Shown here piece by piece: positions 3,856 through 48,351 of a DNA stretch of 64,000 nt. Each line of letters begins with the position of its first letter. The first letter of the stretch is position 1. The position numbers were made by a program, and so were the translations under genes. The stretch is from Escherichia coli (GTDB taxonomy: Bacteria; Pseudomonadota; Gammaproteobacteria; Enterobacterales; Enterobacteriaceae). The DNA is taken from assembly GCF_044647545.1 (NCBI RefSeq), contig NZ_CP172818.1. One strand, given 5' to 3'. A model generated the notes under the pieces. The model had not been told where the DNA came from and ran no database searches. It worked only from the letters and a program-made list of their open reading frames with translations.

Positions 3856-4550
<695 letters not shown>

Positions 4551-4653
4551 AACCCGCCGATTGCGCTACAATGCCCGCCCTTAAAGTGGGGGCACTCCCC
4601 TAACCGCTTCATCAGGTGAAGCGGATCTGACCTGTCATCAGAACGAGAGAATT

Positions 4654-22941: not shown

Positions 22942-23745
22942 ATGACCGAATTTACCACTCTTCTTCAGCAAGGAAATGCCTGGTTCTTCATCCCCAGCGC
23001 CATCTTACTTGGTGCGCTTCATGGCCTGGAACCAGGGCACTCAAAAACGATGATGGCGGCGTTTATCATCGCCATCAAAGGCACCATTAAACAGGCGGTG
23101 ATGCTCGGACTGGCAGCAACCATTTCGCATACCGCGGTGGTCTGGTTGATTGCCTTTGGCGGGATGGTAATCAGCAAACGTTTTACTGCTCAATCTGCAG
23201 AACCGTGGCTCCAGTTGATTTCCGCGGTGATCATTATTGGCACCGCGTTCTGGATGTTCTGGCGTACCTGGCGCGGCGAACGCAACTGGCTGGAGAATAT
23301 GCACGAGCACGAGCACGAGCACGAGCATGATCATGAGCATCATCACCATCACGAACATGGCGAGTATCAGGATGCCCATGCACGAGCCCATTCCAATGAC
23401 ATTAAAAGACGATTTGATGGTAGAGAGGTCACCAACTGGCAAATTTTGTTATTTGGCTTAACCGGTGGCCTTATCCCCTGCCCGGCAGCAATTACCGTGC
23501 TGTTGATTTGCATTCAGTTGAAAGCCCTGACACTGGGCGCAACACTGGTCGTCAGTTTTAGCATTGGCCTGGCGTTAACGCTTGTCACCGTAGGCGTTGG
23601 CGCAGCAATCAGCGTTCAGCAGGTCGCAAAACGCTGGAGCGGATTTAACACTCTCGCTAAACGCGCCCCCTATTTTTCCAGTCTGTTGATTGGCTTAGTT
23701 GGTGTGTATATGGGCGTACATGGCTTCATGGGCATAATGCGATAA
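22942..23745 (+). CDS. rcnA: Nickel/cobalt efflux protein RcnA with His-rich cytoplasmic loop
   Basis: 267 aa; TM helices plus HEHEHEHEHDHEHHHHHEH loop encoded by hexanucleotide repeat. Confidence 0.92.
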   Translation: MTEFTTLLQQGNAWFFIPSAILLGALHGLEPGHSKTMMAAFIIAIKGTIKQAVMLGLAATISHTAVVWLIAFGGMVISKRFTAQSAEPWLQLISAVIIIGTAFWMFWRTWRGERNWLENMHEHEHEHEHDHEHHHHHEHGEYQDAHARAHSNDIKRRFDGREVTNWQILLFGLTGGLIPCPAAITVLLICIQLKALTLGATLVVSFSIGLALTLVTVGVGAAISVQQVAKRWSGFNTLAKRAPYFSSLLIGLVGVYMGVHGFMGIMR

Positions 23746-25433: not shown

Positions 25434-27928
25434 TTACTGGCAAATATAATTTCTACTTTCATCAATCTCTTTACCGAAGGTGATTGTGCATGAAAGTCCT
25501 TGTTGCTTATCAATTGCTACATTAACCGATGGCGGTACTTCATTGGTGCGAATAAATAACTGGCTTCCCTGGCCGACAACACCAATATTATGACCATGGA
25601 TATCATTGACTTCATAACCAAACGTTAATGGTTGCCCATCCGCTCTTAACGCTTTTATAAACCATGGCTTGCGCTGATCGGTATCAAAATTAACCAGTAC
25701 AACCGCGCCGCGATAAGGGGCGGCAATTTTCCGGTTGCCACGTAATTCTGCTTCGCTATCGCTTTGCGACACATCCAGCATCAGGTGATTTTCCCGATAA
25801 GGTGTCATTCCGTCGTATACCACCACTCCATTACGGTTTGTTGTGCGATATTTTTGCCCATTGACATAAGCATCTTTAATTCCTGGCGCATTCATTACAG
25901 CAAACGTTTCGGAAAGACGGTTCGCCAGATTAACGCCACCCGACCAGGCGACAATGCCCCCTGAAACACTGGCTCCAGCCTGTCGATAAGTACTCGACTG
26001 ACTATAACTGCCATTCACCGTTGCCACCGGCGCGTTCCAGGTTAAATTAGCTCCAGCTGTCGTTTCATTTCCCTGATGCTGATGACTCAGGTTGACCCCA
26101 TAGTTAAATTGATCCCGGCTTCCAACGGTTCCCGATAATCCCGTATTATTTGAGGCAAAACCCTGATCATCAAACGTCGTTGAGTTAGACATATATATTT
26201 GCCGACGAGGCGTCGTAGCGTCATCACCCCAATCAAAGGGAATCGATATAAAAATATTAAAACGTTTCTCTTCATGATGATTCTCGTCATAAGCCTGGCT
26301 TGCCGCGAGGGTATAGCTTATCCGTCGCAGGTTGTTGGAATAACTCAACTGATAATCCTTACTGCTGCCGCTACGCCCCCAGTAATCTCGCCATAACGTA
26401 CTTAAGGACACAGAACCCCAGCCTTCTGGCAATGACTGGCTCATATTGGCAGAAAAGCTATTTTTACGGCCAAAATCGTTCTGGTAATAATCGGCAATGT
26501 CATAGATATCGTTTTCATCACGGCGATATTTATCTTTATTGTTTGCCCAAACGTGATCGTTAAATGTCCGGTAATCACGCGACGAATAACGCCAGGCCGC
26601 CAGACCAAAACGCGTCGACGTTTGGCTCACAAATTTGTTGTAGGCAATTTGATAACTTTGCCCGTCAAACACATCGCCGTTGTCTTGTTTACTATGCGAC
26701 TTCGTGGCATCGACGGAAATGGCACCAATGCGTGTATTCCAGCCAGTCCCCAAAGTGAACGCGTAATAATTATTCGCGACCATCGATCCGCCATACAGCG
26801 TCAATAAGTTATTAAAACCATACTGATAACCCGCCTGAACAAAATCACTTTGTTTGCTCGCCCCTTCAATATGGCTACGACCTGCCGCAAAATCATATTT
26901 CGACACGCCGGGTTGCAGCATATTCGGCACCGCTGCATAAGGCACCAGATAGGTGGTTACCGAACCGTCCGCCTCTTTCACGCTGACATCAAGATCTGCT
27001 CCACCACCGGCCAACTGCAAATCTGTAATCGCAAACGGGCCAGGAGGAACCTCTTTCTGATAAACCACAAAACCGTTCTGTTCAATAGTTACCAGCGCGT
27101 TACTCTGAGCAATCCCCTGCACCCGTGGAGTAAAATTTTGTTTCGAGTTAGGCAACATCTGCATATCACGAAACAACCGCACACCGCTGAAGCGAACAGA
27201 ATCAAAAATATCGCTTGATGTGTACATATCACCCACGCGAAGCGTGCCGAGAAGTTGGGCAAATCCACGTTCCAGATACAGGGTATTGCTTTTCCACACC
27301 CCTGGATTGCTATTTGTTTTACTGAAACTGGCATCAGAATGCAGTTGCCACCCCAGTAAGTTTAACCCGCTGTTAAAACGTACATATGTACTCTTGCTAT
27401 TACCCGACGCTTTATAGTCGCTGTAATACTGACTCACATAATAAGAGGTATAAAACGCATTAATACCCCGCTCCCAGTTTTCCGGTGGAACATAGCCACT
27501 TTCCAGTTCTTCCACCCACGCCTGCGGGACACTGAAATCGAGACGAAAAACTCCGATATCCCAGGTATAGCTCCCCCCTGAACAAGTTGCTCAAATGTTA
27601 AACATTGCTTACCGCTGGCAAAGTTATCGGTATTAATGCCTAACCGCTTGATAATTTCCCTTGATATACATGTTTCTTGCAGGTTGTCTTTAACAATAAT
27701 CTCATATTTCCCGCGCCATTGCTTATTGACATAAATATCGATGTCATACTGCCCCGGCAAGGGTTGATTATCATCAAGACGAATATTTGCAACCTGCTGG
27801 TCTTTCATTCCACCTATCATAAAATGGGTATCAAAGGTTTCTTCAGCTGCATAAGCTTCAATGCCGAGCAATAACGCTACGATTGCTGATGCAAGTGGGG
27901 TCATTCTCAACATAGGCAGCTCCTGCAA
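25434..27928 (-). pseudogene. yehB: Outer-membrane fimbrial usher YehB, disrupted by a single-base frameshift in a homopolymer (or sequencing error)
   Basis: Two ORFs in different frames (27434..27928 N-terminal fragment, 25434..27515 remainder); frame switches at C6 run 27573-27578 (minus-strand G6); restoring one G gives continuous ...FEQLVQGG-SYTWDIGVFRLDFSVPQAWVEELESGY... Confidence 0.8.
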
Positions 27929-33480: not shown

Positions 33481-36400
33481 ATGAAACACTTTATCTATCA
33501 GGACGAAAAATCACATAAATTCTGGGCGGTGGAGCAGCAGGGAAACGAGTTGCATATCTGTTGGGGAAAAGTTGGCACCAAAGGGCAAAACCAGGTAAAA
33601 AGTTTTGCGGATGCTGCGGCGGCGGAAAAAGCGGAGCTGAAGCTGATTGCGGAGAAGGTGAAGAAGGGATATGTGGAGCAAGCGAAGGATAATTCTTTGC
33701 AACCTTCCCAAACGGTAACGGACTCTCTCAAGGTAGCGGACTTATCCACCATTATTCAGGAACAACCCTCTTTCGTAGCAGAAACCCGTGCGGCTGACAA
33801 AAATACAGACGTTATTTTACCGTGGCTGGCAAAAGATATTGCTGTCGTTTTTCCGCTTGAAGTCGTACCCACCACCTTAAGCCATCGCCGCTTTCCCGGA
33901 GATCCTGTTACACCTGTAGATAAATTAACCCAGTTACGTCGCTTAGCCTGTGGCGTGTCGCAACGGGATAACAAAACAGCTACATTTGACTTCAGCGCCT
34001 GTACTTTAGAGTGGCAAAACTTCATCGCTCAGGCGATCGATCTGATTAACAGCCCGAAAACGACAAAATTACCATCACCGGTAATGGCTGTACTCGCGGC
34101 ACTTGAACTGCACTGTACGAGATATAAAGAGCGTGAGGATGTTATGGATCAGATTATTCAGGAAGGCGGTCTGGAATATGCTACTGATGTAATAATACAT
34201 CTTCAACAAATATCTATTGAATGGGATTATGTCAACAATAATATTGTTTTCCTGTCGTCTGGCATTTCACCTGATTACTTGCAGCAATATTCCAGCTTTG
34301 AATTACGCCTACGTAAACATTTATCACTGGCGGAAGAGTCTCTCTGGCAAAAATGTGCACAAAAACTTATTGCCGCAGTTCCACATATTCCAGAATGGCG
34401 GCAACCATTAATTGCTTTGTTATTACCCGAAAAACCAGAAATTGCACATGAAATTGCCCAGCGTCTACTGGGGCAAAAGAAATTACCCTCGCTTGAGTGG
34501 CTAAAAATAGTGGCGACTGATGAGCACATTCTTGCCTCATTAGAAAAATATCACGAGCCATATGCCATTTTTGATGATTACTATTGTGGTGCGATATGGT
34601 CAGCCACCGTATTACAGGAGCAAGGTGTTGCAGCCCTGCCCCGATTTGCACCCTATGTCGCAAGTGACTACTGCGCCGATGTGTTGAGTCATATCAATCA
34701 TCCGTTCGCATTAACACTGCTTATACGTGTAGCCGGGCATACTAAACGCTGTCACGATCGAATGACGAAAGCCTGCGCTGCGTTCCCACACGCAGCACTG
34801 GCAGCACTGGCGGAACTTCTAGTGCAAAAAGAAGAGAATAGTTGGCGCATTATGCTAATGACGATGCTTATCTCGCAACCTACACTAGCAGAACAGGTCA
34901 TTCCCTGGCTTTCGACACCCGCAGTTGCAGTGCTGAAATCATGCCAGCAACAACTGAAACAGCCCTCAAACCATGCCAGTGCCGATCTACTGCCGGCCAT
35001 AGTAGTCTCCCCACCATGGCTTTCGAAAAAGAAAAAATCGCCGATTCCGGTGCTTGATTTAGCACCGCTCAACCTCGAATCCATATGCACAATAACCGAC
35101 ACAGAAGCTAAAGAGTTTCAAACTCATTGGGACTGGGAACCGCATAAGCCAGGTGAAGGTGCTAAAGATTTCCTTTACTCGCTGGGGTATCGCCGCTGGG
35201 ATTTTGACACATATAAATATATCGGCGCTTCTGACTCGGCAATTGACGCATGGGAACGTGAGGACTTCGCTACACTCATCCAAATGTTTAAAGCCCACCA
35301 TGCACCGTATCAGGGGGAGTGGCATCTCAACTCACTTCCCTTTTTACCTATGCAAAAAGCGATTAAACTATGGGAATTTCTCAGCAAAGAGCCGCATACC
35401 GCGGTAAAACCTGTCATGCTTTATTTGCGACTGGCAGGTATGAGTGGTTTTCTACACTCGTTTTCACGCTACCCTCAAGAAGGTTTTGCGGTTGCTAATT
35501 ATTTTGCCGCAACGGAACTGGCTCCTGCCGTCGCCCGCGCCTTTAACAAACTCAAAACTCTACGACAAGACGCCCGCACCTGGCTGCTGAAATATCCGGA
35601 ACATGCCATTACCGGCCTGTTGCCTGCGGCACTCGGCAAAGCCGGTGAATCCCAGGATAACGCCCGTGCCGCTTTACGTATGTTGATTGAAAATGGTTAT
35701 CCGTCATTACTGCAAGAAATCGCCCAGCGTTATAACCAGCCGGAAGTAACCGATGCGGTGAACGCTCTACTTGCGCTCGATCCCTTAGATAATCACCCGA
35801 CTAAAATCCCGACACTTCCGGCCTTTTATCAGCCATCGCTCTGGACGCGCCCGGTATTAAAAGCAAACGCCCAATCACTGCCAGATAGCGCCCTCTTCCA
35901 CCTCGGTGAAATGCTCCGCTTCCCTCAGGAAGATACGCTGTATCCGGGGTTATTACAGGTGAAAGACGCCTGTACTGCCGACTCACTGGCTGAGTTTGCC
36001 TGGGATCTGTTTACCGCCTGGCAGACCGCTGGCGTGCCGTCGAAAGAGAGCTGGGCGTTCACTGCATTAGGTGTTCTTGGCAACGGTGACACCGCCCGCA
36101 AACTGACGCCATTAATCCGCGCCTGGCCTGGCGAATCTCAGCATAAACGTGCCACCGTTGGGTTGGATATTCTCGCTGCTATCGGCAGCGATATCGCCCT
36201 GATGCAGCTTAACGGCATCGCCCAGAAACTGAAATTCAAAGCCTTACAGGAGCGGGCGAAAGAAAAAATTGCCGACATTGCCGAAAGTCGCGAACTCACA
36301 GTGGCAGAACTTGAAGATCGGTTAGCACCGGATCTCGGTCTGGATGATAACGGTTCGCTGCTGCTGGATTTCGGGCCACGGCAGTTCACCGTCAGCTTTG

Positions 36401-37269
36401 ATGAAACCTTAAAACCGTTTGTGCGTGATGCTTCCGGCAGCCGCCTGAAAGACTTGCCTAAACCGAACAAAAGCGATGATGAAACCCAAGCGAACGATGC
36501 AGTTAACCGCTACAAACTGTTGAAAAAAGATGCGCGTACCGTTGCCGCCCAGCAGGTAGCAAGGCTGGAATCCGCCATGTGCCTACGCCGCCACTGGTCG
36601 CCGGAAAACTTCCAGCTATTCCTGGTTGAGCATCCGCTGGTTCGCCACTTAACCCGCCGTCTGATTTGGGGCGTTTATAGCACCGAAAACGAGCTACTGG
36701 CCTGTTTCCGGGTGGCAGAAGATAACAGCTACAGCACCGCTGACGATGATCTTTTCACCCTGCCGGAAGGCGATATCTCTATTGGTATTCCTCACGTTCT
36801 GGAAATATCACCGACGGATGCCGCCGCCTTTGGTCAGCTTTTTGCCGACTACGAACTTTTACCGCCGTTCCGTCAGCTCGACCGCAACAGTTATGCCCTG
36901 ACTGAAGTCGAACGCAACGCCAGCGAACTAACCCGCTGGGCAGGCAGAAAATGCCCGAGCGGTCGGGTTATGGGGCTGTCGAATAAAGGCTGGGTGCGTG
37001 GTGAACCGCAGGACGGTGGCTGGATCGGCTGGATGATCAAACCTCTGGGCCGCTGGTCATTAATCATGGAAATCGATGAAGGATTTGCAGTTGGTATGTC
37101 GCCAGCCGAACTCAGTGCCGAGCAACTCTTAAGCAAGCTGTGGCTATGGGAAGGCAAAGCAGAAAGCTATGGCTGGGGGAGTCATTCAACACAGGAAGCG
37201 CAGTTCTCCGCACTCGATGACATCACCGCCAGCGAGTTGATTAACGATATTGAAGCCCTGTTTGAATAA
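33481..37269 (+). CDS. molR: Giant WGR-domain + DUF4132 protein MolR (intact form of the K-12 molR/yehG-yehH pseudogene)
   Basis: 1262 aa single ORF; N-terminal WGR-like segment (HKFWAVEQQGNELHICWGKVGTKGQ); remainder collinear with yehI. Confidence 0.85.
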   Translation: MKHFIYQDEKSHKFWAVEQQGNELHICWGKVGTKGQNQVKSFADAAAAEKAELKLIAEKVKKGYVEQAKDNSLQPSQTVTDSLKVADLSTIIQEQPSFVAETRAADKNTDVILPWLAKDIAVVFPLEVVPTTLSHRRFPGDPVTPVDKLTQLRRLACGVSQRDNKTATFDFSACTLEWQNFIAQAIDLINSPKTTKLPSPVMAVLAALELHCTRYKEREDVMDQIIQEGGLEYATDVIIHLQQISIEWDYVNNNIVFLSSGISPDYLQQYSSFELRLRKHLSLAEESLWQKCAQKLIAAVPHIPEWRQPLIALLLPEKPEIAHEIAQRLLGQKKLPSLEWLKIVATDEHILASLEKYHEPYAIFDDYYCGAIWSATVLQEQGVAALPRFAPYVASDYCADVLSHINHPFALTLLIRVAGHTKRCHDRMTKACAAFPHAALAALAELLVQKEENSWRIMLMTMLISQPTLAEQVIPWLSTPAVAVLKSCQQQLKQPSNHASADLLPAIVVSPPWLSKKKKSPIPVLDLAPLNLESICTITDTEAKEFQTHWDWEPHKPGEGAKDFLYSLGYRRWDFDTYKYIGASDSAIDAWEREDFATLIQMFKAHHAPYQGEWHLNSLPFLPMQKAIKLWEFLSKEPHTAVKPVMLYLRLAGMSGFLHSFSRYPQEGFAVANYFAATELAPAVARAFNKLKTLRQDARTWLLKYPEHAITGLLPAALGKAGESQDNARAALRMLIENGYPSLLQEIAQRYNQPEVTDAVNALLALDPLDNHPTKIPTLPAFYQPSLWTRPVLKANAQSLPDSALFHLGEMLRFPQEDTLYPGLLQVKDACTADSLAEFAWDLFTAWQTAGVPSKESWAFTALGVLGNGDTARKLTPLIRAWPGESQHKRATVGLDILAAIGSDIALMQLNGIAQKLKFKALQERAKEKIADIAESRELTVAELEDRLAPDLGLDDNGSLLLDFGPRQFTVSFDETLKPFVRDASGSRLKDLPKPNKSDDETQANDAVNRYKLLKKDARTVAAQQVARLESAMCLRRHWSPENFQLFLVEHPLVRHLTRRLIWGVYSTENELLACFRVAEDNSYSTADDDLFTLPEGDISIGIPHVLEISPTDAAAFGQLFADYELLPPFRQLDRNSYALTEVERNASELTRWAGRKCPSGRVMGLSNKGWVRGEPQDGGWIGWMIKPLGRWSLIMEIDEGFAVGMSPAELSAEQLLSKLWLWEGKAESYGWGSHSTQEAQFSALDDITASELINDIEALFE

Positions 37270-37278
37270 GGAAAGAAC

Positions 37279-40200
37279 ATGGACAAGGAATTACCGTGGC
37301 TGGCGGATAACGCCCAACTGGAACTGAAATATAAAAAAGGCAAAACACCACTCAGCCATCGCAATTGGCCGGGCGAACCGGTGCCTGTTATCACTGAAAA
37401 CCTCATCCAGACACTGGGTGATAAATTGCTACACATTGCTGAGAAGAAAAAAAACATTGTCTGGCGTTATGAAAATTTTTCACTGGAATGGCAGTCCGCC
37501 ATCACGCAGGCCATCAACTTGATCGGCGAGCACAAACCCTCAATTCCGGCCCGGACAATGGCGGCGCTAGCCTGTATCGCGCAAAATGATAGCCAACAGT
37601 TACTCGACGAAATCGTCCAACAAGAGGGACTGGAATATGCGACTGAAGTGGTGATTGCACGCCAGTTTATTGTACGGTGTTATGAGAGTGATCCTCTGGT
37701 AGTAACATTGCAGTATCAGAAGGAGGACTATGGCTATGGCTATGGCTATGGTTATCGCTCAGAAACCTATAACGAATTCGATCTCCGACTGCGTAAGCAT
37801 CTCTCTCTGGCAGAGGAAAGCTGCTGGCAGCGTTGCGCCGACAAACTCATTGCCGCACTGCCAGGACTACCCCAAGTTCGCCGTCCTTTTATTGCACTCA
37901 TCCTCCCGGAAAAACCAGAAATCGCCAATGAGTTGGTAGGCCTTGAATGCCCGTGGACTCATTTTCATTCTAAGGAGTGGTTAAAAGTTGTTGCTACTGA
38001 CCACAGGGCAGTGGGAAAACTCGAACGCTACTGGAGCCAGGATATATTTAGCGATCGCGAAGCCAGCTACATGTCGCATGAAAACCACTTCGGCTACGCG
38101 GCCTGCGCCGCCCTTTTGCGCGAACAAGGAATTGCAGCCGTTCCACGCCTCGCGATGTATGCCCATAAAGAAGATTGCGGTAGCCTGCTGGTAAAAATTA
38201 ACCATCCGCAGGTCATCCGCACCCTGCTGTTAGTTGCTGATAAAAACAAACCCAGCCTGCAACGTGTGGCTAAATACAGTAAAAACTTCCCCCATGCGAC
38301 GCTTGCCGCACTGGCAGAGCTTCTGGCGTTAAAAGAACCGCCTGCACGCCCTGGTTATCCAATCATCGAAGACAAAAAGCTGCCTGCACAGCAAAAAGCT
38401 CGAGATGAATACTGGCGTACGCTGTTACAAACGCTGATGGCATCGCAGCCACAACTGGCAGAAGAGGTGATGCCGTGGTTAAGTACTCAAGCCCAGGCAG
38501 TGCTGGATAGTTATTTATCGGCACCGCCCAAAACGGTTATTGATAGCACCGATAACATCCAAATGCCTGAAATCCTCGTTTCACCACCGTGGCGTAGTAA
38601 GAAAAAAATGACAGTTCCACGTCTTGATTTGGCACCGTTCGAATTAACGCCGCAAGTTTACTGGCAACCAGGCGAACGAGAGAGGCTTGCCGCCACTGAG
38701 TCTGCCCGTTATTTCAGCACGGAATCTCTTGCGGAACGCATGGAACAAAAAAGTGGACGAGTTGTATTACAGGAGCTGGGTTTTGGAGATGATGTATGGC
38801 TGTTTTTGAATTATATACTCCCCGGAAAACTGGATGCTGCACGCAATTCACTCATTGTTCAGTGGCATTACTACCCAGGGCGGGTTGAAGAGATCATGAA
38901 TGGCTGGAGCTCCCCGGAAGCTCAATTAGCAGAACAGGCGCTTCGCAACGGTCACGTAGAAGTGTTAATTAACATATGGGAAAATGACAGCTACTCACGC
39001 TATCGTCGGGAAAAGAGTATCTGGAACCTGTATTTATTGGCGCAGTTGCCGCGTGAGATGGCTTTGACTTTCTGGCTACGTATCAATGAGAAAAAGCATC
39101 TGTCTGCGGGAGAGGACTATTTTCTCAGTATCTTCGGATTGGATGCTCTACCAGGTCTGCTGTTGGCTTTTTCACATCGTCCAAAAGAAACATTTCCATT
39201 AATTTTAAATTTCGGCGCAACAGAACTGGCCCTGCCCGTTGCCCGCGTCTGGCGACGTTTCGCGGCGCAGCGTGATCTGGCTCGCCAGTGGATTTTACAT
39301 TGGTCGGAACATACAGCTACTGCACTTATCCCTCTTGTCTTCACCAAATCCAGCGATAATAGCGAAGCTGCATTACTTGCCCTGCGTTTACTTTACGAAC
39401 AGGGACATGGCGAGTTACTGCAAACCGTGGCAAACCGCTGGCAGCGTACAGATGTATGGCCTGCCCTGGAGCAATTACTTAAACAGAGTCCAATAGAGAT
39501 TTACCCGACACGCATTCCAAAAGCCCCTGATTTCTGGCAGCCGGCAATGTGGTCCAGACCGAGACTTATCACGAATAATCAACCTGTTACTGATGATGCT
39601 CTGGAAATTATCGGCGAAATGCTGCGCTTTACCCAGGGCGGACGTTTTTATTGTGGGCTGGAACAACTGAAAACGTTCTGCCAGCCACAAACGCTGGCCG
39701 CTTTTGCCTGGGATCTCTTTACCGCGTGGCAACAAGTTGGCGCCCCCGCAAAAGACAACTGGGCATTTCTGGCGTTAAGTCTCTTCGGTGACGAAAGCAC
39801 GGCTCGGGATCTGACAACACAGATCCTCGCCTGGCCACAGGAAGGCAAATCTGCCCGTGCCGTCAGTGGCCTGAACATACTTACCCTGATGAATAATGAT
39901 ATGGCGCTGATACAGCTGCATCATATATCGCAACGGGCGAAATCCCGTCCCTTACGTGATAACGCGGCGGAATTTCTTCAGGTGGTCGCAGAAAATCGTG
40001 GACTAAGCCAGGAAGAGTTAGCGGACAGATTAGTCCCAACACTGGGCCTGGATGATCCGCAGGCGTTGATATTTGATTTTGGTCCCCGGCAGTTTACCGT
40101 TCGCTTCGATGAAAACCTCAACCCGGTTATCTTTGATCAGCAAAACGTTCGCCAGAAAAGCATTCCCCGGTTGCGCGCCGATGACGATCAGCTGAAAGCG

Positions 40201-40923
40201 CCCGAGGCTCTGGCCCGACTTAAAGGGCTAAAAAAAGATGCCACTCAGGTGAGCAAAAACCTGCTCCCGCGTCTTGAAACAGCCCTACGCACCACCCGAC
40301 GCTGGTCGCTGGCAGATTTTCATTCTCTGTTTGTTAATCATCCCTTTACCCGTCTGGTTACCCAGCGATTAATATGGGCGGTTTATCCAGCAAATGAACC
40401 GCGTCGTTTACTCAACGCCTTTCGTGTGGCCGCAGAGGGGGAATTCTGCAACGCACAAGATGAGCCAATTGACCTGCCTGCCGATGCCCTGATTGGCATT
40501 GCCCACCCGTTAGAAATGACAGCAGAAATGCGCAGTGAATTTGCACAGCTTTTTGCCGATTACGAAATTATGCCGCCTTTTCGCCAGTTGACGCGGCGCA
40601 CAGTGCTGCTCACGCCTGACGAGTCAGCCAGTAATAGTTTGAATCGCTGGGAAGGTAAATCTGCTACCGTTGGGCAACTTATGGGAATGCGATACAAAGG
40701 CTGGGAGTCAGGCTATGAGAACGCATTTGTCTATGACCTGGGCGAGTACCGGCTGGTCCTTAAGTTTTCATCCGGTTTTAACCACTACAATGTTGATAGC
40801 AAAGCGCTAATGAGCTTCCGTTCTCTTCATGTATACCGTGACAATAAATCTGTCACTTTTGCCGAACTTGATGTGTTTGATTTGAGTGAAGCGTTAAGCG
40901 CACCCGACGTCATTTTCCATTAA
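37279..40923 (+). CDS. yehI: Giant DUF4132 protein YehI, tandem paralog of MolR lacking the WGR domain
   Basis: 1214 aa; long collinear similarity to MolR (DLRLRKHLSLAEES.WQ.CA.KLIAA.P ... FPHA.LAALAELL ... FGPRQFTV.FDE); internal GYGYGYGY repeat. Confidence 0.85.
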   Translation: MDKELPWLADNAQLELKYKKGKTPLSHRNWPGEPVPVITENLIQTLGDKLLHIAEKKKNIVWRYENFSLEWQSAITQAINLIGEHKPSIPARTMAALACIAQNDSQQLLDEIVQQEGLEYATEVVIARQFIVRCYESDPLVVTLQYQKEDYGYGYGYGYRSETYNEFDLRLRKHLSLAEESCWQRCADKLIAALPGLPQVRRPFIALILPEKPEIANELVGLECPWTHFHSKEWLKVVATDHRAVGKLERYWSQDIFSDREASYMSHENHFGYAACAALLREQGIAAVPRLAMYAHKEDCGSLLVKINHPQVIRTLLLVADKNKPSLQRVAKYSKNFPHATLAALAELLALKEPPARPGYPIIEDKKLPAQQKARDEYWRTLLQTLMASQPQLAEEVMPWLSTQAQAVLDSYLSAPPKTVIDSTDNIQMPEILVSPPWRSKKKMTVPRLDLAPFELTPQVYWQPGERERLAATESARYFSTESLAERMEQKSGRVVLQELGFGDDVWLFLNYILPGKLDAARNSLIVQWHYYPGRVEEIMNGWSSPEAQLAEQALRNGHVEVLINIWENDSYSRYRREKSIWNLYLLAQLPREMALTFWLRINEKKHLSAGEDYFLSIFGLDALPGLLLAFSHRPKETFPLILNFGATELALPVARVWRRFAAQRDLARQWILHWSEHTATALIPLVFTKSSDNSEAALLALRLLYEQGHGELLQTVANRWQRTDVWPALEQLLKQSPIEIYPTRIPKAPDFWQPAMWSRPRLITNNQPVTDDALEIIGEMLRFTQGGRFYCGLEQLKTFCQPQTLAAFAWDLFTAWQQVGAPAKDNWAFLALSLFGDESTARDLTTQILAWPQEGKSARAVSGLNILTLMNNDMALIQLHHISQRAKSRPLRDNAAEFLQVVAENRGLSQEELADRLVPTLGLDDPQALIFDFGPRQFTVRFDENLNPVIFDQQNVRQKSIPRLRADDDQLKAPEALARLKGLKKDATQVSKNLLPRLETALRTTRRWSLADFHSLFVNHPFTRLVTQRLIWAVYPANEPRRLLNAFRVAAEGEFCNAQDEPIDLPADALIGIAHPLEMTAEMRSEFAQLFADYEIMPPFRQLTRRTVLLTPDESASNSLNRWEGKSATVGQLMGMRYKGWESGYENAFVYDLGEYRLVLKFSSGFNHYNVDSKALMSFRSLHVYRDNKSVTFAELDVFDLSEALSAPDVIFH

Positions 40924-41304: not shown

Positions 41305-41469
41305 CTTTATTAAAGGGGGAAACGGTATTCCCCTTTAGATGTGTTTTATTTTCCCGTTACTCAAAAAAATAAATAAACCGAAAAAAAGCCACTAATAGCT
41401 CCAGTACGGAAATAAGCAGGGTTAATTTTTTGTCAGTGTGTCCATCCCTTCTCTTTATAAAGGAGGGCA

Positions 41470-41560
41470 ACACCACTTTTTACCTACCCCCCCCTTTATT
41501 TTTTTTATTCGAACCATTTCCCCCCCGAAGGCCCCCCCCCCCCCCCCCCAACCCTTGAAA
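41470..41560. other. Anomalous low-complexity stretch with poly-C (17 nt), poly-T and C-rich runs; probable sequencing/assembly artefact
   Basis: Direct reading: ...tacctacccccccctttattttttttattcgaaccatttcccccccgaaggcccccccccccccccccaaccc...; same character as the 3856-4550 anomaly. Confidence 0.55.
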
Positions 41561-41704
41561 TGGGTTCGATCCGGCGCAACGTCCCAACAGTCAGGATTAT
41601 AAATCTCATTATCTTAATTGCAACGGGGTCCACCGATGGTTATAATTCGTTCGTTGGAACACGATGTTGCACAGGCCGTGGTGTTAGGCCTGAAAGTAGT
41701 AAAT

Positions 41705-41738
41705 AAAAGAACCTGCCTCACCAGCAGGTTTTTTTATT
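41705..41738 (+). terminator. Rho-independent terminator-like hairpin upstream of yehL
   Basis: AACCTGC-CTCACCA-GCAGGTT followed by T7; ~110 bp upstream of yehL start. Confidence 0.55.
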
Positions 41739-41846
41739 TACTGTGATCTGTTTCCCAGATATTTTCCGCTCAAACAACTAATGCGCCAAACATTTATTGC
41801 GCGTAAAATATCGTTTATTTCATTAATACATTTCAGGGATGAATAT

Positions 41847-42935
41847 ATGTCACCGCAGAATAATCATCTGCAGCGTCCGCCTGTCGCTGTGTTATACGCC
41901 GATGAACTGGCAAAATTAAAACAAAATGATCACGCACCTTGCCCGCCCGGTTGGCAGTTAAGTTTGCCTGCGGCCCGTGCTTTTATCCTTGGCGATAGCG
42001 CGCAAAATATTAGCCGTAAAGTGGTGATTAGTCCCTCCGCTGTCGAACGCATGTTAGTCACTCTTGCCACCGGGCGCGGTTTGATGTTGGTGGGGGAACC
42101 TGGCACCGCAAAATCTCTCCTGTCTGAATTACTGGCAACCGCTATTAGCGGCGATGCCGGGTTAACCATCCAGGGCGGCGCATCTACCACTGAAGATCAA
42201 ATCAAGTACGGCTGGAACTACGCTCTGCTTATCAACCATGGTCCGTCAACGGAAGCACTGGTCCCTGCCCCGCTTTACCAGGGAATGCGCGACGGCAAAA
42301 TCGTCCGTTTTGAAGAGATAACGCGTACACCGCTGGAAGTACAAGACTGTCTGTTAGGTATGCTTTCTGACAGGGTAATGACGGTGCCGGAACTCACTGG
42401 TGAAGCCAGTCAGCTCTATGCGCGAGAAGGCTTTAATATTATTGCCACTGCCAATACCCGCGATCGCGGCGTCAATGAAATGAGCGCTGCGCTAAAGCGT
42501 CGATTCGATTTTGAAACGGTCTTTCCGATTATGGATTTCGCCCAGGAACTGGAACTGGTCGCCAGTGCTTCGGCGCGTTTATTGGCCCATAGTGGCATTC
42601 CGCATAAAGTGCCTGACGCGGTACTGGAGTTACTGGTACGCACCTTCCGCGATCTGCGTGCCAACGGCGAAAAGAAAACGTCAATGGATACACTGACAGC
42701 GATTATGTCCACCGCTGAAGCCGTGAACGTAGCCCACGCTGTGGGTGTCCGCGCCTGGTTTTTAGCGAATCGCGCAGGTGAGCCAGCCGATCTGGTGGAC
42801 TGTATTGCCGGAACCATCGTTAAAGATAACGAAGAAGATCGCGCTCGTCTGCGCCGTTACTTCGAACAGCGTGTCGCCACACATAAAGAAGCTCACTGGC
42901 AGGCTTATTATCAAGCCCGCCACCGCCTGCCGTGA
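41847..42935 (+). CDS. yehL: MoxR-family AAA+ ATPase YehL
   Basis: 362 aa from MSPQNNHLQRPP; Walker A LVGEPGTAKS; Walker B region IVRFEEITRTPLEVQDCLLGML; MoxR-like C-terminal helical region. Confidence 0.88.
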   Translation: MSPQNNHLQRPPVAVLYADELAKLKQNDHAPCPPGWQLSLPAARAFILGDSAQNISRKVVISPSAVERMLVTLATGRGLMLVGEPGTAKSLLSELLATAISGDAGLTIQGGASTTEDQIKYGWNYALLINHGPSTEALVPAPLYQGMRDGKIVRFEEITRTPLEVQDCLLGMLSDRVMTVPELTGEASQLYAREGFNIIATANTRDRGVNEMSAALKRRFDFETVFPIMDFAQELELVASASARLLAHSGIPHKVPDAVLELLVRTFRDLRANGEKKTSMDTLTAIMSTAEAVNVAHAVGVRAWFLANRAGEPADLVDCIAGTIVKDNEEDRARLRRYFEQRVATHKEAHWQAYYQARHRLP

Positions 42936-42945
42936 GGAAAGATGC

Positions 42946-45225
42946 ATGAGCGAGCCGTTAATTGTCGGCATCCGGCATCATAGCCCGGCCTGCGCCCGGC
43001 TGGTGAAATCGTTAATCGAAAGCCAGCGGCCACGATACGTGTTGATTGAAGGCCCGGCTGATTATAATGACCGGGTAGACGAACTGTTTTTAGCCCACCA
43101 GCTTCCGGTAGCTATTTACAGTTATTGCCAGTATCAGGACGGTGCAGCCCCCGGGCGTGGTGCCTGGACGCCATTTGCTGAATTTTCGCCGGAGTGGCAG
43201 GCGCTACAAGCCGCTCGTCGTATTCAGGCACAAACTTACTTCATCGATTTGCCTTGCTGGGCGCAGAGTGAAGAAGAGGACGATTCGCCTGATACGCATG
43301 AGGAAAGCCAGACCTTGCTGCTGCATGCCACCCGCATGGATAACAGCGACACCCTGTGGGATCACTTGTTCGAAGATGAAAGCCAGCAAACTGCATTACC
43401 CTCTGCACTGGCGCACTATTTTGCCCAACTGCGGGGCGACTCCCCCGGAGATGCTCTCAATCGTCAGCGCGAAGCCTTTATGGCCCGCTGGATTGCATGG
43501 GCGATGCAGCAAAATAATGGCGACGTGTTAGTTGTCTGCGGTGGCTGGCACGCTCCGGCACTGGCAAAAATGTGGCGCGAATGCCCGCAAGAAATTAACA
43601 AGCCAGAATTGCCGTCGCTGGCAGATGCCGTTACAGGTTGCTATCTCACGCCATACAGTGAAAAGCGCCTTGATGTGCTGTCAGGATACCTTTCAGGAAT
43701 GCCTGCCCCGGTCTGGCAAAACTGGTGCTGGCGGTGGGGCTTGCAGCAGGCAGGTGAACAACTACTGAAAACGGTTCTTACCCGTTTGCGCCAGCACCAC
43801 TTGCCTGCTTCAACAGCGGATATGGCTGCCGCTCATCTGCATGCGATGGCACTGGCACAGTTGCGCGGTCATACACTACCGTTACGCACTGACTGGCTGG
43901 ATGCTATAGCCGGCTCGCTGATCAAAGAAGCCCTGAACGCGCCGTTGCCGTGGAGCTATCGCGGCGTTATTCATCCCGATACCGATCCGATTCTGCTAAC
44001 GTTGATAGACACATTAGCGGGTGACGGATTCGGTAAACTTGCCCCCTCGACGCCACAGCCACCTCTGCCAAAAGATGTCACCTGCGAACTGGAACGTACC
44101 GGAATCTCTTTTCCGGCGGAGCTTACCTTAAATCGCTTTACCCCCGATGGACTGGCGCAAAGTCAGGTGTTACATCGGCTGGTAATACTGGAGATCCCAG
44201 GGGTTGTGCGCCAGCAGGGAAGTACACTGACACTTGCAGGCAACGGTGAAGAACGCTGGAAATTAACCCGCCCGCTTAGCCAACATGCGGCATTAATTGA
44301 GGCCGCCTGCTTTGGTGCCACACTCCAGGAAGCCGCACGCCATAAATTAGAAGCCGATATGCTGGACGCGGGTGGAATCGGCAGTATCACCACATGTCTT
44401 AGCCAGGCGGCGTTAGCGGGTCTGGCGTCCTTCAGTCAACAATTACTGGAGCAACTTACATTATTAATCGCCCAGGAAAATCAGTTTGCCGAAATGGGCC
44501 AGGCGCTGGAAGTGCTATACGCCTTATGGCGGCTGGATGAAATTAGCGGTATGCAAGGCGCGCAGATATTACAGACGACGTTATGCGCAGCTATCGATCG
44601 CACACTCTGGCTGTGTGAATCCAACGGCAGACCGGATGAAAAGGAGTTTCACGCTCACCTGCATAGCTGGCAAGCGCTTTGCCATATCCTGCGCGATCTA
44701 CATAGCGGCGTTAATTTACCCGGCGTTTCGCTTTCTGCGGCGGTAGCCTTACTGGAGCGCCGCAGTCAGGCGATTCATGCCCCGGCGCTGGATCGCGGCG
44801 CGGCTCTTGGCGCACTAATGCGTCTGGAACATCCCAACGCCAGTGCCGAAGCGGCGCTGACGATGCTGGCGCAGTTATCCCCGGCACAATCCGGCGAGGC
44901 GCTGCACGGTTTGCTGGCATTAGCCCGTCATCAACTGGCCTGTCAGCCGGCATTTATCGCCGGTTTCAGTAGTCATTTAAATCAACTGAGTGACGACGAT
45001 TTTATTAACGCCCTGCCCGATTTACGCGCGGCGATGGCCTGGCTACCACCACGAGAACGCGGGACGCTGGCGCATCAGGTGCTTGAGCATTACCAGCTCG
45101 CACAGCTTCCCATTTCAGCGCTGCAAATGCCGTTGCATTGTCCACCGCAAGCCATTGCACATCATCAACAACTCGAACAGCAGGCACTGGCATCGCTGCA
45201 ACACTGGGGAGTTTTCCATGTCTGA
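42946..45225 (+). CDS. yehM: Large uncharacterized protein YehM
   Basis: 759 aa from MSEPLIVGIRHHSPA (ATG at 42946, 10 bp after yehL stop); no domain I can assign; stop overlaps yehP start. Confidence 0.8.
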   Translation: MSEPLIVGIRHHSPACARLVKSLIESQRPRYVLIEGPADYNDRVDELFLAHQLPVAIYSYCQYQDGAAPGRGAWTPFAEFSPEWQALQAARRIQAQTYFIDLPCWAQSEEEDDSPDTHEESQTLLLHATRMDNSDTLWDHLFEDESQQTALPSALAHYFAQLRGDSPGDALNRQREAFMARWIAWAMQQNNGDVLVVCGGWHAPALAKMWRECPQEINKPELPSLADAVTGCYLTPYSEKRLDVLSGYLSGMPAPVWQNWCWRWGLQQAGEQLLKTVLTRLRQHHLPASTADMAAAHLHAMALAQLRGHTLPLRTDWLDAIAGSLIKEALNAPLPWSYRGVIHPDTDPILLTLIDTLAGDGFGKLAPSTPQPPLPKDVTCELERTGISFPAELTLNRFTPDGLAQSQVLHRLVILEIPGVVRQQGSTLTLAGNGEERWKLTRPLSQHAALIEAACFGATLQEAARHKLEADMLDAGGIGSITTCLSQAALAGLASFSQQLLEQLTLLIAQENQFAEMGQALEVLYALWRLDEISGMQGAQILQTTLCAAIDRTLWLCESNGRPDEKEFHAHLHSWQALCHILRDLHSGVNLPGVSLSAAVALLERRSQAIHAPALDRGAALGALMRLEHPNASAEAALTMLAQLSPAQSGEALHGLLALARHQLACQPAFIAGFSSHLNQLSDDDFINALPDLRAAMAWLPPRERGTLAHQVLEHYQLAQLPISALQMPLHCPPQAIAHHQQLEQQALASLQHWGVFHV

Positions 45226-46354
45226 ACTGAACGATCTTCTGACCACCCGTGAGCTACAACGCTGGCGATTAATTCTTGGCGAAGCGGCAGAAACGACGCT
45301 TTGTGGGCTGGATGACAACGCCCGGCAGATAGACCACGCGCTGGAGTGGCTGTACGGGCGCGATCCTGAACGGCTCCAGCGTGGTGAACGCTCCGGTGGA
45401 TTAGGTGGCTCAAATCTCACCACCCCTGAGTGGATCAACAGTATTCACACGCTGTTTCCGCAACAGGTGATTGAACGGCTGGAAAGCGATGCCGTACTGC
45501 GCTACGGCATTGAAGATGTGGTGACAAATCTCGACGTGCTGGAACGTATGCAGCCTTCGGAAAGCCTGCTACGCGCCGTTTTGCACACCAAACATCTGAT
45601 GAATCCCGAAGTACTGGCTGCCGCCCGCCGGATAGTACGCCAGGTTGTGGAAGAAATTATGGCGCGACTGGCAAAGGAAGTTCGTCAGGCTTTTTCTGGT
45701 GTCCGCGATCGCCGTCGCCGCTCATTTATTCCACTGGCGCGAAACTTTGATTTCAAAAGTACTCTGCGCGCCAACCTGCAACACTGGCACCCGCAACACG
45801 GCAAGTTGTATATCGAATCCCCCCGCTTTAACAGCCGCATTAAACGCCAAAGCGAACAATGGCAACTGGTCTTACTGGTTGATCAAAGCGGATCAATGGT
45901 GGACTCGGTGATCCACTCAGCGGTGATGGCGGCCTGTTTATGGCAGTTACCCGGTATTCGTACCCATCTGGTGGCGTTTGACACCAGCGTGGTTGATCTC
46001 ACGGCAGACGTTGCCGATCCGGTAGAGTTATTAATGAAAGTGCAATTAGGCGGCGGAACCAATATCGCCAGTGCCATGGAATATGGTCGGCAACTTATTG
46101 AACAACCAGCGAAAAGCGTCATCATCCTCGTGAGCGATTTTTACGAAGGGGGTTCATCATCATTACTGACGCATCAGGTGAAAAAGTGTGTCCAGAGCGG
46201 CATCAAAGTGCTGGGACTGGCGGCGCTCGATAGCACCGCAACACCTTGCTATGACCACGATACGGCCCAGGCGCTAGTTAATGTCGGCGCACAAATAGCC
46301 GCCATGACACCGGGCGAGCTGGCGGCCTGGCTTGCGGAGAATCTTCAGTCATGA
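45218..46354 (+). CDS. yehP: von Willebrand factor A (VWA) domain protein YehP
   Basis: 378 aa; C-terminal VWA with MIDAS DxSxS (LVLLVDQSGSM), further ...GGGTN... and ILVSDFYEGG; start ATG overlaps yehM stop (ATGTCTGA). Confidence 0.88.
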   Translation: MSELNDLLTTRELQRWRLILGEAAETTLCGLDDNARQIDHALEWLYGRDPERLQRGERSGGLGGSNLTTPEWINSIHTLFPQQVIERLESDAVLRYGIEDVVTNLDVLERMQPSESLLRAVLHTKHLMNPEVLAAARRIVRQVVEEIMARLAKEVRQAFSGVRDRRRRSFIPLARNFDFKSTLRANLQHWHPQHGKLYIESPRFNSRIKRQSEQWQLVLLVDQSGSMVDSVIHSAVMAACLWQLPGIRTHLVAFDTSVVDLTADVADPVELLMKVQLGGGTNIASAMEYGRQLIEQPAKSVIILVSDFYEGGSSSLLTHQVKKCVQSGIKVLGLAALDSTATPCYDHDTAQALVNVGAQIAAMTPGELAAWLAENLQS

Positions 46355-48351
46355 ATTCACTACGTCCGGAATTATTAGAACTGACGCCGCAGGCCCTGAC
46401 GGCGTTAAGCAATGCCGGTTTTGTTAAACGCAGTCTTAAGGAACTGGAAAATGGCAACGTCCCGGAAATCAGCCATAAGAACGGCGCTTTAATCGCCACC
46501 TTCAGTGACGGTGTCCGTACCCAGCTGGCGAACGGTCAGGCACTGAAAGAGGCTCAATGCAGCTGCGGGGCCAGCGGCATGTGCCGCCATCGCGTGATGC
46601 TGGTTTTAAGTTATCAGCGACTTTGCGCCACCACCCAGCCTACGGAAAAAGAAGAAGAGTGGGATCCGGCAATCTGGCTAGAAGAACTGGCTACCCTTCC
46701 CGATGCCACCCGCAAACGCGCGCAGGCGCTGGTCGCTAAAGGCATCACCATTGAGTTGTTCTGTACGCCGGGCGAAATTCCCTCTGCCCGCTTACCGATG
46801 AGCGATGTACGTTTTTATTCCCGCAGCAGCATTCGTTTCGCACGCTGTGATTGTATTGAAGGAACACTTTGCGAACATGTTGTGCTGGCAGTACAGGCCT
46901 TTGTCCAGGCCAAAGCGCAGCAAGCAGAATTTAACCATTTAATCTGGCAGATGCGCAGCGAACACGTCACATCATCTGACGATCCGTTTGCCAGCGAAGA
47001 GGGCAACGCGTGTCGTCAATATGTTCAGCAACTAAGCCAGGCATTATGGCTGAGCGGCATCAGCCAGCCGCTTATTCATTACGAGGCCGCTTTCAGCCGC
47101 GCGCAGCAAGCGGCGGAACGCTGCAACTGGCGCTGGGTAAGTGAATCACTACGACAGCTACGGGCAAGCGTTGATGCCTTCCACGCCCGCGCCAGTCACT
47201 ATCATGCCGGAGAATGCTTACGTCAGCTTGCGGCATTAAACAGTCGATTAAATTGCGCACAAGAGATGGCGCGGCGCGACAGTGTTGGTGAAGTTCCTCC
47301 TGTGCCGTGGCGCACGGTCGTTGGCGCTGGCATTGCCGGAGAAGCAAAGCTTGATCATCTGCGGCTGGTGTCTTTAGGTATGCGTTGCTGGCAGGATATT
47401 GAGCAGTATGGTTTACGCATCTGGTTCACCGATCCCGACACCGGCAGTATTTTGCATCTTTCGCGTAGTTGGCCGAGAAGCGAACAGGAAAATTCACCGG
47501 CAGCGACGCGTCGGCTGTTTAGTTTTCTGGCTGGCGCACTGGCAGGTGGGCAAATTGTTTCACAAGCAGCAAAACGCAGTGCCGATGGCGAACTGCTATT
47601 AGCTACCCGCAACCGCTTGAGTAGTGTTGTGCCGCTGTCGCCAGACGCCTGGCAAATGTTGAGCGCGCCATTGCGCCAGCCGGGCATTGTGGCTTTGCGG
47701 GAATATTTACGCCAGCGTCCCCCCGCCTGCATACGGCCTCTTAATCAGGTGGATAACTTATTTATTCTGCCAGTCGCTGAGTGTATTTCACTCGGTTGGG
47801 ATAGCAGCCGCCAGACACTGGATGCGCAGGTAATCAGCGGCGAAGGTGAAGATAACGTGCTGACATTATCCCTACCAGCCTCTGCCTGTTCGCCCTTTGC
47901 TGTTGAACGCATGGCGGCGCTTTTGCAACAAACAGACGACCCCGTGAGTCTGGTTTCTGGCTTTGTCAGCTTTGTAGAGGGGCAATTGACACTGGAACCA
48001 CGGGTGATGATGACAAAAAACCGCGCCTGGGCGCTGGACGCAGAAACTGCGCCTGTGGCACCGCTACCTTCTGCCAGCGTTTTGCCTGTGCCGTCTACCG
48101 CTCATCAGTTGCTGATGCGCTGCCAGGCGTTACTTATTCAACTGCTCCATAACGGCTGGCGCTATCAGGAACAGAGTGCTATTGGTCAGGCAGAGTTGCT
48201 GGCGAATGACCTCACCGCGGTGGGTTTTTATCGGCTGGCACATGTGTTGGCACAATTTCGTAATACAGAAAGCGAGGCACGGGTAGAAGCAATGAATAAC
48301 GGTGTTTTGATTTGCGAACAATTATTCCCCATGCTTCAGCAACAAGGATGA
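46351..48351 (+). CDS. yehQ: SWIM zinc-finger domain protein YehQ
   Basis: 666 aa as ORF; two CxC...CxH SWIM-like motifs (CSCGASGMCRHRVM and CDCIEGTLCEHVVLAV); start overlaps yehP stop (ATGA). Confidence 0.85.
   Translation: MNSLRPELLELTPQALTALSNAGFVKRSLKELENGNVPEISHKNGALIATFSDGVRTQLANGQALKEAQCSCGASGMCRHRVMLVLSYQRLCATTQPTEKEEEWDPAIWLEELATLPDATRKRAQALVAKGITIELFCTPGEIPSARLPMSDVRFYSRSSIRFARCDCIEGTLCEHVVLAVQAFVQAKAQQAEFNHLIWQMRSEHVTSSDDPFASEEGNACRQYVQQLSQALWLSGISQPLIHYEAAFSRAQQAAERCNWRWVSESLRQLRASVDAFHARASHYHAGECLRQLAALNSRLNCAQEMARRDSVGEVPPVPWRTVVGAGIAGEAKLDHLRLVSLGMRCWQDIEQYGLRIWFTDPDTGSILHLSRSWPRSEQENSPAATRRLFSFLAGALAGGQIVSQAAKRSADGELLLATRNRLSSVVPLSPDAWQMLSAPLRQPGIVALREYLRQRPPACIRPLNQVDNLFILPVAECISLGWDSSRQTLDAQVISGEGEDNVLTLSLPASACSPFAVERMAALLQQTDDPVSLVSGFVSFVEGQLTLEPRVMMTKNRAWALDAETAPVAPLPSASVLPVPSTAHQLLMRCQALLIQLLHNGWRYQEQSAIGQAELLANDLTAVGFYRLAHVLAQFRNTESEARVEAMNNGVLICEQLFPMLQQQG

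Follow-up and report, generated by a model that had tools for sequence, protein, structure and literature searches.

An in-frame hexanucleotide repeat of variable length within yehI of Escherichia coli

Results

The yehI locus and its neighbourhood

The window analysed here is a stretch of 64,000 nucleotides from an Escherichia coli genome. Its plus strand carries an open reading frame matching the gene that RefSeq names 'yehI: DUF4132 domain-containing protein YehI'. The encoded protein matches Pfam family PF13569 (DUF4132) with 161.5 bits, the gathering cut-off being 27. The genes of the locus are the following:

33481..37269, plus strand: intact MolR-type paralogue of 1262 aa, with WGR and DUF4132 domains and no YG tract, directly upstream of yehI
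37279..40923, plus strand: yehI, 1214 aa, DUF4132 at aa 958-1142, N-terminal 460 aa modelled as mostly helical
41781..48351, plus strand: yehL-yehM-yehP-yehQ, downstream of yehI, encoding a MoxR-type AAA_5 ATPase, a DUF5682 protein, a VWA_CoxE protein and a SWIM zinc finger protein

The yehK gene is also found downstream of yehI, before yehL. The yehL-yehQ genes are genomic context of yehI only, with no sign of an interaction with the repeat described below. A search of PADLOC-DB with YehI, MolR, YehK, YehL, YehM, YehP and YehQ gave no match at E <= 0.01. The yehI sequence of the window is identical to those of FDAARGOS_497 and MS6198, genomes encoding WP_022645866.1, and the three genomes are the same over 7.2 kb around the repeat, save for the last few bases.

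A hexanucleotide repeat encoding alternating Tyr and Gly

Within the first part of yehI, the window at positions 37726-37761 reads, in the frame of the gene, GAC, three times TAT GGC, then TAT GGT, TAT CGC and TCA. Two overlapping features can be defined in it:

37728..37751, plus strand: perfect period-6 tract of 24 nt, CTATGG x4 (TATGGC x3 + TATGG), the slippage-prone core
37729..37758, plus strand: five-unit array in the yehI frame, TATGGC x3, TATGGT and TATCGC, coding for YGYGYGYG-YR (codons 151-160)

Tandem Repeats Finder (TRF) reported the region 37728-37759, with period 6, 5.3 copies and a score of 50. Codon 151 begins at position 37729, so that the tract lies in frame with yehI and the peptide across it is D150, YGYGYGYGY (residues 151-159) and R160; the fourth unit carries a synonymous change and the fifth a change of Gly to Arg. 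The initial annotation had described four perfect TATGGC units followed by a degenerate fifth, which holds in the shifted phase CTATGG but not in the codon phase, where three units are perfect and the fourth is TATGGT. Its reading of the repeat as an alternation of Gly and Tyr within yehI was borne out by the sequence, the frame and TRF, the GYGYGYGY that it named being residues 152-159. It was also right that the tract is missing from the paralogue, since MolR aligned at this position reads FLSSGIS, a three-position gap and PDYLQQYSSFELRLRK, without any YG run.

The run of period-6 self-matches in the tract covers 18 positions, whereas the longest run was 11 both when the codons of yehI were shuffled 2,000 times and when the full window was shuffled 300 times. 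The tract therefore has at least three head-to-tail copies of a short unit, beyond what is expected by chance, as in a microsatellite or VNTR. The tract and its vicinity contain no promoter-like site, no Rfam family matched at the repeat, and no stable single-strand DNA structure was detected there (z = 0.28).

Copy number across complete E. coli genomes

A query of 211 bp centred on the repeat had matches in 4,727 of 5,426 complete E. coli genomes, only 56 of them at an identity of 99% or more. Most matches spanned 199 bp and one spanned 229 bp; reading of the sequences confirmed that spans of 199, 211 and 229 bp correspond to 2, 4 and 7 YG units. Further queries were built with 7, 3, 1 and 2 units, and 16 genomes were read base by base. 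Allele-specific counting by short-flank queries was discarded, since large gaps make BLAST break an alignment up, and identity bands become misleading. The numbers of genomes per allele given below were derived from the lengths and identity bands of BLAST matches; both are distorted where large gaps split the alignments, so that only bands and rows where this effect was recognisable were used. The counts leave aside about 2 genomes that the 211-bp query matched at 95-99%.

2 YG units: about 98% of genomes (by subtraction; 38 of 40 evenly spaced rows), including K-12, BL21 and C
3 YG units: 19 genomes, including IAI39 and CE10
4 YG units: about 56 genomes, including 'ST648', IMT16316, MS6198, FDAARGOS_497 and the window
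5 YG units: 3 genomes
6 YG units: 1 genome
7 YG units: 17 genomes, including SMS-3-5
8 YG units: 4 genomes
9 YG units: 2 genomes
12 YG units: 1 genome (SCU-301)

Nine length alleles of yehI, with 2-9 and 12 YG units, are thus present among the 4,727 complete genomes, and the repeat, which had been put forward as a candidate for length variation, does vary in copy number. A one-unit query with K-12 flanks rendered no 1-unit allele, its best matches being 2-unit alleles at 97.0%, and no alleles of 10, 11 or more than 12 units were found among the complete genomes matched by the 7- and 3-unit queries. The variation is far from species-wide: expanded alleles are found almost wholly on one group of related yehI haplotypes, that of IAI39, ST648-type genomes and SMS-3-5. 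We take IAI39, SMS-3-5, CE10 and the ST648-type strains to belong to phylogroup F.

Whole-unit changes on identical flanks

Among the expanded alleles that were read, only the number of TATGGC units differs, the GAC on the 5' side and the TATGGT TAT CGC that serves as 3' anchor being constant in every one of them. Flanking sequences, compared with confirmation on a MAFFT alignment, showed no difference over 3,178 bp among the strains with 5, 6, 7, 8 and 9 units, and two differing sites between these and the 12-unit strain. The flanks of the window (4 units) and of strain 806883-9-2019 (5 units) are likewise identical. Copy number therefore differs among strains, and does so by whole units on conserved flanks, as is typical of VNTR loci; whole-unit changes on identical flanks are the signature expected of slippage that outpaces point mutation. 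The yehI CDS is annotated as intact in the genomes with 3 to 12 units that were examined.

The SMS-3-5-type haplotype differs from that of the window at 16 of about 2,030 yehI positions, and the IAI39 haplotype at 34-40. No window-type flank with 2 units was present among the complete genomes. A length other than the mode was found in 11 of the 28 genomes with the 7-unit haplotype and in about 1 of 57 with the 4-unit haplotype, while the 2-unit form is essentially fixed elsewhere.

Two very different yehI backgrounds, both mosaic, likewise carry alleles of 3 units, and one of these reads DDGYGYGY; expansion has thus taken place more than once. The yehI genes of MFDS1022581 and EC42405, for which RefSeq does not use the name yehI, are about 19% divergent from that of the window over 2 kb of the gene and 98.5-99.5% identical to it in the 205 bp around the repeat; given such identity despite the divergence of the gene, they look mosaic, that is, recombinant.

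Predicted structure and family context of the tract

The N-terminal region of YehI (residues 1-460) was modelled with AlphaFold2 (AF2) for two alleles, both models being good overall:

4-unit allele: mean pLDDT 83.9, pTM 0.83; tract modelled as coil, with pLDDT <50 at residues 152-158, between a strand (141-145) and a helix (166-177)
12-unit allele: mean pLDDT 82.8, pTM 0.82; tract modelled as coil, with pLDDT <50 at residues 152-175, and the same flanking elements, shifted by 16 residues

The predicted fold is unchanged between the two models. A structured prediction would have spoken against the flexible linker that had been suggested for this region, and what AF2 returned for both alleles is low-confidence coil. 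The suggestion is nevertheless to be modified in one respect, since the predicted coil does not join two domains but lies inside the N-terminal helical region, where the YG tract would form a floppy surface loop between a beta-hairpin (131-145) and the helix at 166-177. Low pLDDT at positions where the alignment contains only gaps is weak evidence for disorder, and the aggregation-prone character that had also been suggested is speculative.

Word-indexed protein searches rendered mostly truncated E. coli fragments with little depth across species, and were replaced by an exhaustive search of representative sequences with the N-terminal 460 residues, which yielded 136 relatives. When 34 of these were aligned, the tract was located in the segment of lowest conservation, which is also the richest in gaps and indels, between a conserved GLEYATEVVIARQ helix and a conserved E-x-x-LR-x-HL...W-x-x-C helix. 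The YG run is absent from the Klebsiella oxytoca/spallanzanii orthologues, as it is from MolR. Other Escherichia-type YehI proteins have YGYGY or GYGY followed by RSETY, and this conservation of a GYGYRSETY core suggests that the shortest form may be under some constraint. A Foldseek search of the N-terminal region against the PDB gave nothing significant, the best hit having an E-value of 0.11 and a vague resemblance to ARM/PUF-like solenoids.

Other observations in the window

Several features lie outside the yehI repeat. The Rfam family of the OrzO-P antitoxin RNA matches at 41660-41735 on the plus strand, over its full length and with 98.9 bits (gathering score 60). A type I toxin-antitoxin locus, zor-orz (zorO-orzO), is reported to lie between yehI and yehL in most E. 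coli, K-12 being an exception (PMC2887945), and the position of the match agrees with it. The ORF of the zorO toxin may sit in a corrupted-looking stretch at 41440-41560, in the yehK-yehL intergenic region, which has a run of 18 C and T/C homopolymers and no good match in any complete genome; the window diverges from FDAARGOS_497 and MS6198 from about 41334 onward. Another low-complexity, homopolymer-rich stretch occupies positions 4100-4560, and among its runs are one of about 27 G and one of about 28 A; none of the 5,426 complete E. coli genomes matches it over its full length. At that position, ST648-type genomes have a RelE/ParE-ParD toxin-antitoxin pair next to yegQ. This stretch has the look of an artefact of the source record (corrupted sequence or misassembly) and not of a biological feature. 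The usher gene of the yehABCD fimbrial cluster (25434..27928, minus strand) seems to be divided between two ORFs (693 and 164 aa), which suggests a frameshift or a pseudogene.

Many public YehI proteins of the 4-unit haplotype are truncated to 350 aa. They diverge after KYSK (codon about 336) and reach a stop 15 codons later, the divergence point corresponding to about 38280-38330 of the window (yehI codons about 334-350). This pattern implies a 1-nt indel in a short homopolymer of those other assemblies; in the window and in the complete ST648-type genomes checked, yehI is intact.

In rcnA (22942..23745, plus strand) positions 23301-23339 hold a further in-frame hexamer repeat, GCACGA x4.5, which encodes HEHEHEHEH within the His-rich loop of RcnA, a Ni/Co efflux protein. 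The surrounding stretch, 231 bp in the window, is 252, 276, 279 or 303 bp long in other E. coli genomes, and these differences in span indicate that the RcnA loop is variable in length too, across most of the species.

Discussion

Slippage in a tolerant loop as the probable origin of the alleles

It is probable that the tract is an in-frame hexanucleotide microsatellite whose length is driven by slippage, located in a tolerant loop of YehI and with changes that are probably close to neutral. The ancestral state in Escherichia would have been a short and imperfect TATGGC-TATGGT-TAT, coding for YGYGY. A TATGGC unit would then have been duplicated on the group of related haplotypes represented by IAI39, the ST648-type genomes and SMS-3-5. 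With three or more perfect units available, slippage of the strands during replication may have added and removed whole units, as the pattern of alleles suggests, and it would have become more frequent as the tract grew, giving rise to alleles of 3 to 12 YG pairs. The rate of microsatellite slippage rises with tract length. Lengths other than the mode are common at 7 units, rare at 4 and essentially absent at 2, and this is what length-dependent slippage would predict.

With regard to the protein, each step would only lengthen or shorten a poorly ordered and non-conserved loop of the N-terminal helical region. Because the unit has 6 nt, every change of length keeps the reading frame, and this, together with the poor order and low conservation of the loop, leads us to judge the changes tolerated and probably near-neutral. 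Loop length may still affect YehI.

Alternative explanations

The number of YG pairs might on the other hand be under selection, with the length of the loop or its content in Tyr modulating the activity of YehI or its interaction with a partner, for instance YehL-YehP. There are precedents in E. coli, where in-frame repeat variation in tolA, mutL and ahpC changes the phenotype (PMC3477136), and several of the present observations are consistent with such a role: successful lineages carry expanded alleles in fixed form (4 units in about 56 genomes, 7 units in 17), the window-type haplotype was never met with 2 units, and the GYGYRSETY core is conserved across Escherichia. We nevertheless consider it unlikely. 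The literature that mentions yehI with E. coli gives no function or phenotype for the gene; in K-12, the two downstream genes yehL and yehM are subject to silencing by H-NS/StpA and are de-repressed in hns/stpA mutants (PMC3686432); within the family, the tract sits where conservation is lowest and indels are most frequent, and neither the paralogue nor the Klebsiella orthologue has it; and the spread of lengths around the mode on identical flanks resembles mutational drift more than selection of a single length. A bolder version, according to which the tract is a lineage-specific evolvable length module that, through the reach or the Tyr content of a surface loop, tunes how YehI works with the adjacent YehL-YehQ, and the ST648- and SMS-3-5-type expansions are adaptive instead of the result of drift, appears less probable still. 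It is quite improbable, too, that the Y-G run constitutes an ordered element, whether a beta-arm, a Tyr ladder or a driver of self-association or condensation. Beta structure can arise where aromatic and small residues alternate, low-complexity regions rich in Tyr and Gly are known to favour self-association of other proteins, and the tract follows a predicted beta-hairpin (131-145); but AF2 gave coil with pLDDT <50 along the full length of the tract, also in its 25-residue form, a run of 5-25 residues is short, and the homologues have nothing comparable.

Could the differences in copy number be errors of assembly or sequencing in the resolution of the repeat? The two obviously corrupted homopolymer-rich stretches of the window indicate that the source record is not free of error. 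However, the tract measures 12-72 nt, far below any read length, the window agrees with FDAARGOS_497 and MS6198 over the 7.2 kb around the repeat, and the alleles recur in complete genomes that different laboratories obtained independently (4 units in about 56, 7 units in 17 and 8 units in 4), including isolates from Germany and Thailand-type CUVET isolates. Since identical alleles recur in many independent genomes and track the haplotype of the flanks, an artefact is very unlikely. A perfect short tandem repeat that lies within a gene and varies between strains also recalls the loci of phase variation, at which yehI would be switched on and off. Such a frame-switching contingency locus can be excluded for practical purposes, because a unit of 6 nt cannot shift the frame, all the alleles read differing by whole units, and because the examined genomes with 3 to 12 units have an intact CDS; nor is there a promoter-like site at the tract through which expression could be switched.

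Comparison with known repeats

Intragenic repeats that have been described in E. coli include a 15-bp unit in tolA, present in 8-16 copies among 234 isolates, CTGGCG x3 in mutL and TCT x4 in ahpC, and the number of repeats in tolA alters stress tolerance (PMC3477136). The yehI tract resembles them in being a short repeat within a coding region that changes by whole units in frame and differs in copy number among natural isolates, and the unit of mutL is a hexamer as well. It departs from them in that it varies on minority haplotypes only, about 98% of the genomes being fixed at 2 units, and in that changes of copy number have a demonstrated phenotype in tolA, mutL and ahpC but are not known to have one in yehI. 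The repeat of rcnA comes close to that of yehI, as an in-frame hexamer that codes for an alternating dipeptide (HE) in a loop and differs in length among E. coli genomes; unlike the yehI tract, however, it varies across most of the species and has an evident role in metal binding, according to the annotation of the family.

In Haemophilus, Neisseria and Campylobacter, phase-variable contingency loci turn genes on and off by means of simple-sequence repeats. They would share with yehI slipped-strand mispairing at a perfect short repeat and an instability that rises with length, but the yehI unit is a multiple of three and lies outside a promoter, so that it gives a series of protein lengths and not an on/off switch.

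VNTR loci such as those of GECM-10 (CVN001-CVN017) are used for MLVA typing of E. coli (PMC3877011), and in them, as in yehI, the copy number of a short unit separates lineages and also close relatives within a lineage. With about 98% of the genomes at one allele, the yehI tract would be poor as a general typing locus, and, unlike the MLVA loci, it is informative only within the group of IAI39, ST648 and SMS-3-5. In the literature searched, whose MLVA papers name neither genes nor repeat sequences and do not mention yehI, nothing links yehI or the sequence of its repeat to a tandem-repeat or MLVA locus.

Significance of the yehI repeat

No description of the yehI repeat, or of its sequence, was found in the literature searched, and the tract is apparently an in-frame repeat polymorphism of a well-known kind that had not been described before. 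Nothing yet indicates that the cell is affected by it, and it does not illuminate the role of YehI. Its practical value is modest and mainly that of a lineage marker for the group of IAI39, ST648 and SMS-3-5, with 3, 4 and about 7 units, respectively; given the fast variation within the SMS-3-5-type haplotype, the tract could help to discriminate close relatives there. Besides, the alleles constitute a natural slippage series, from a stable 2-unit form to an unstable form of at least 5 units on identical flanks, suited to measuring the rate of slippage against tract length in E. coli, and the tract marks a site in YehI that tolerates insertions and would be useful for tagging the protein.
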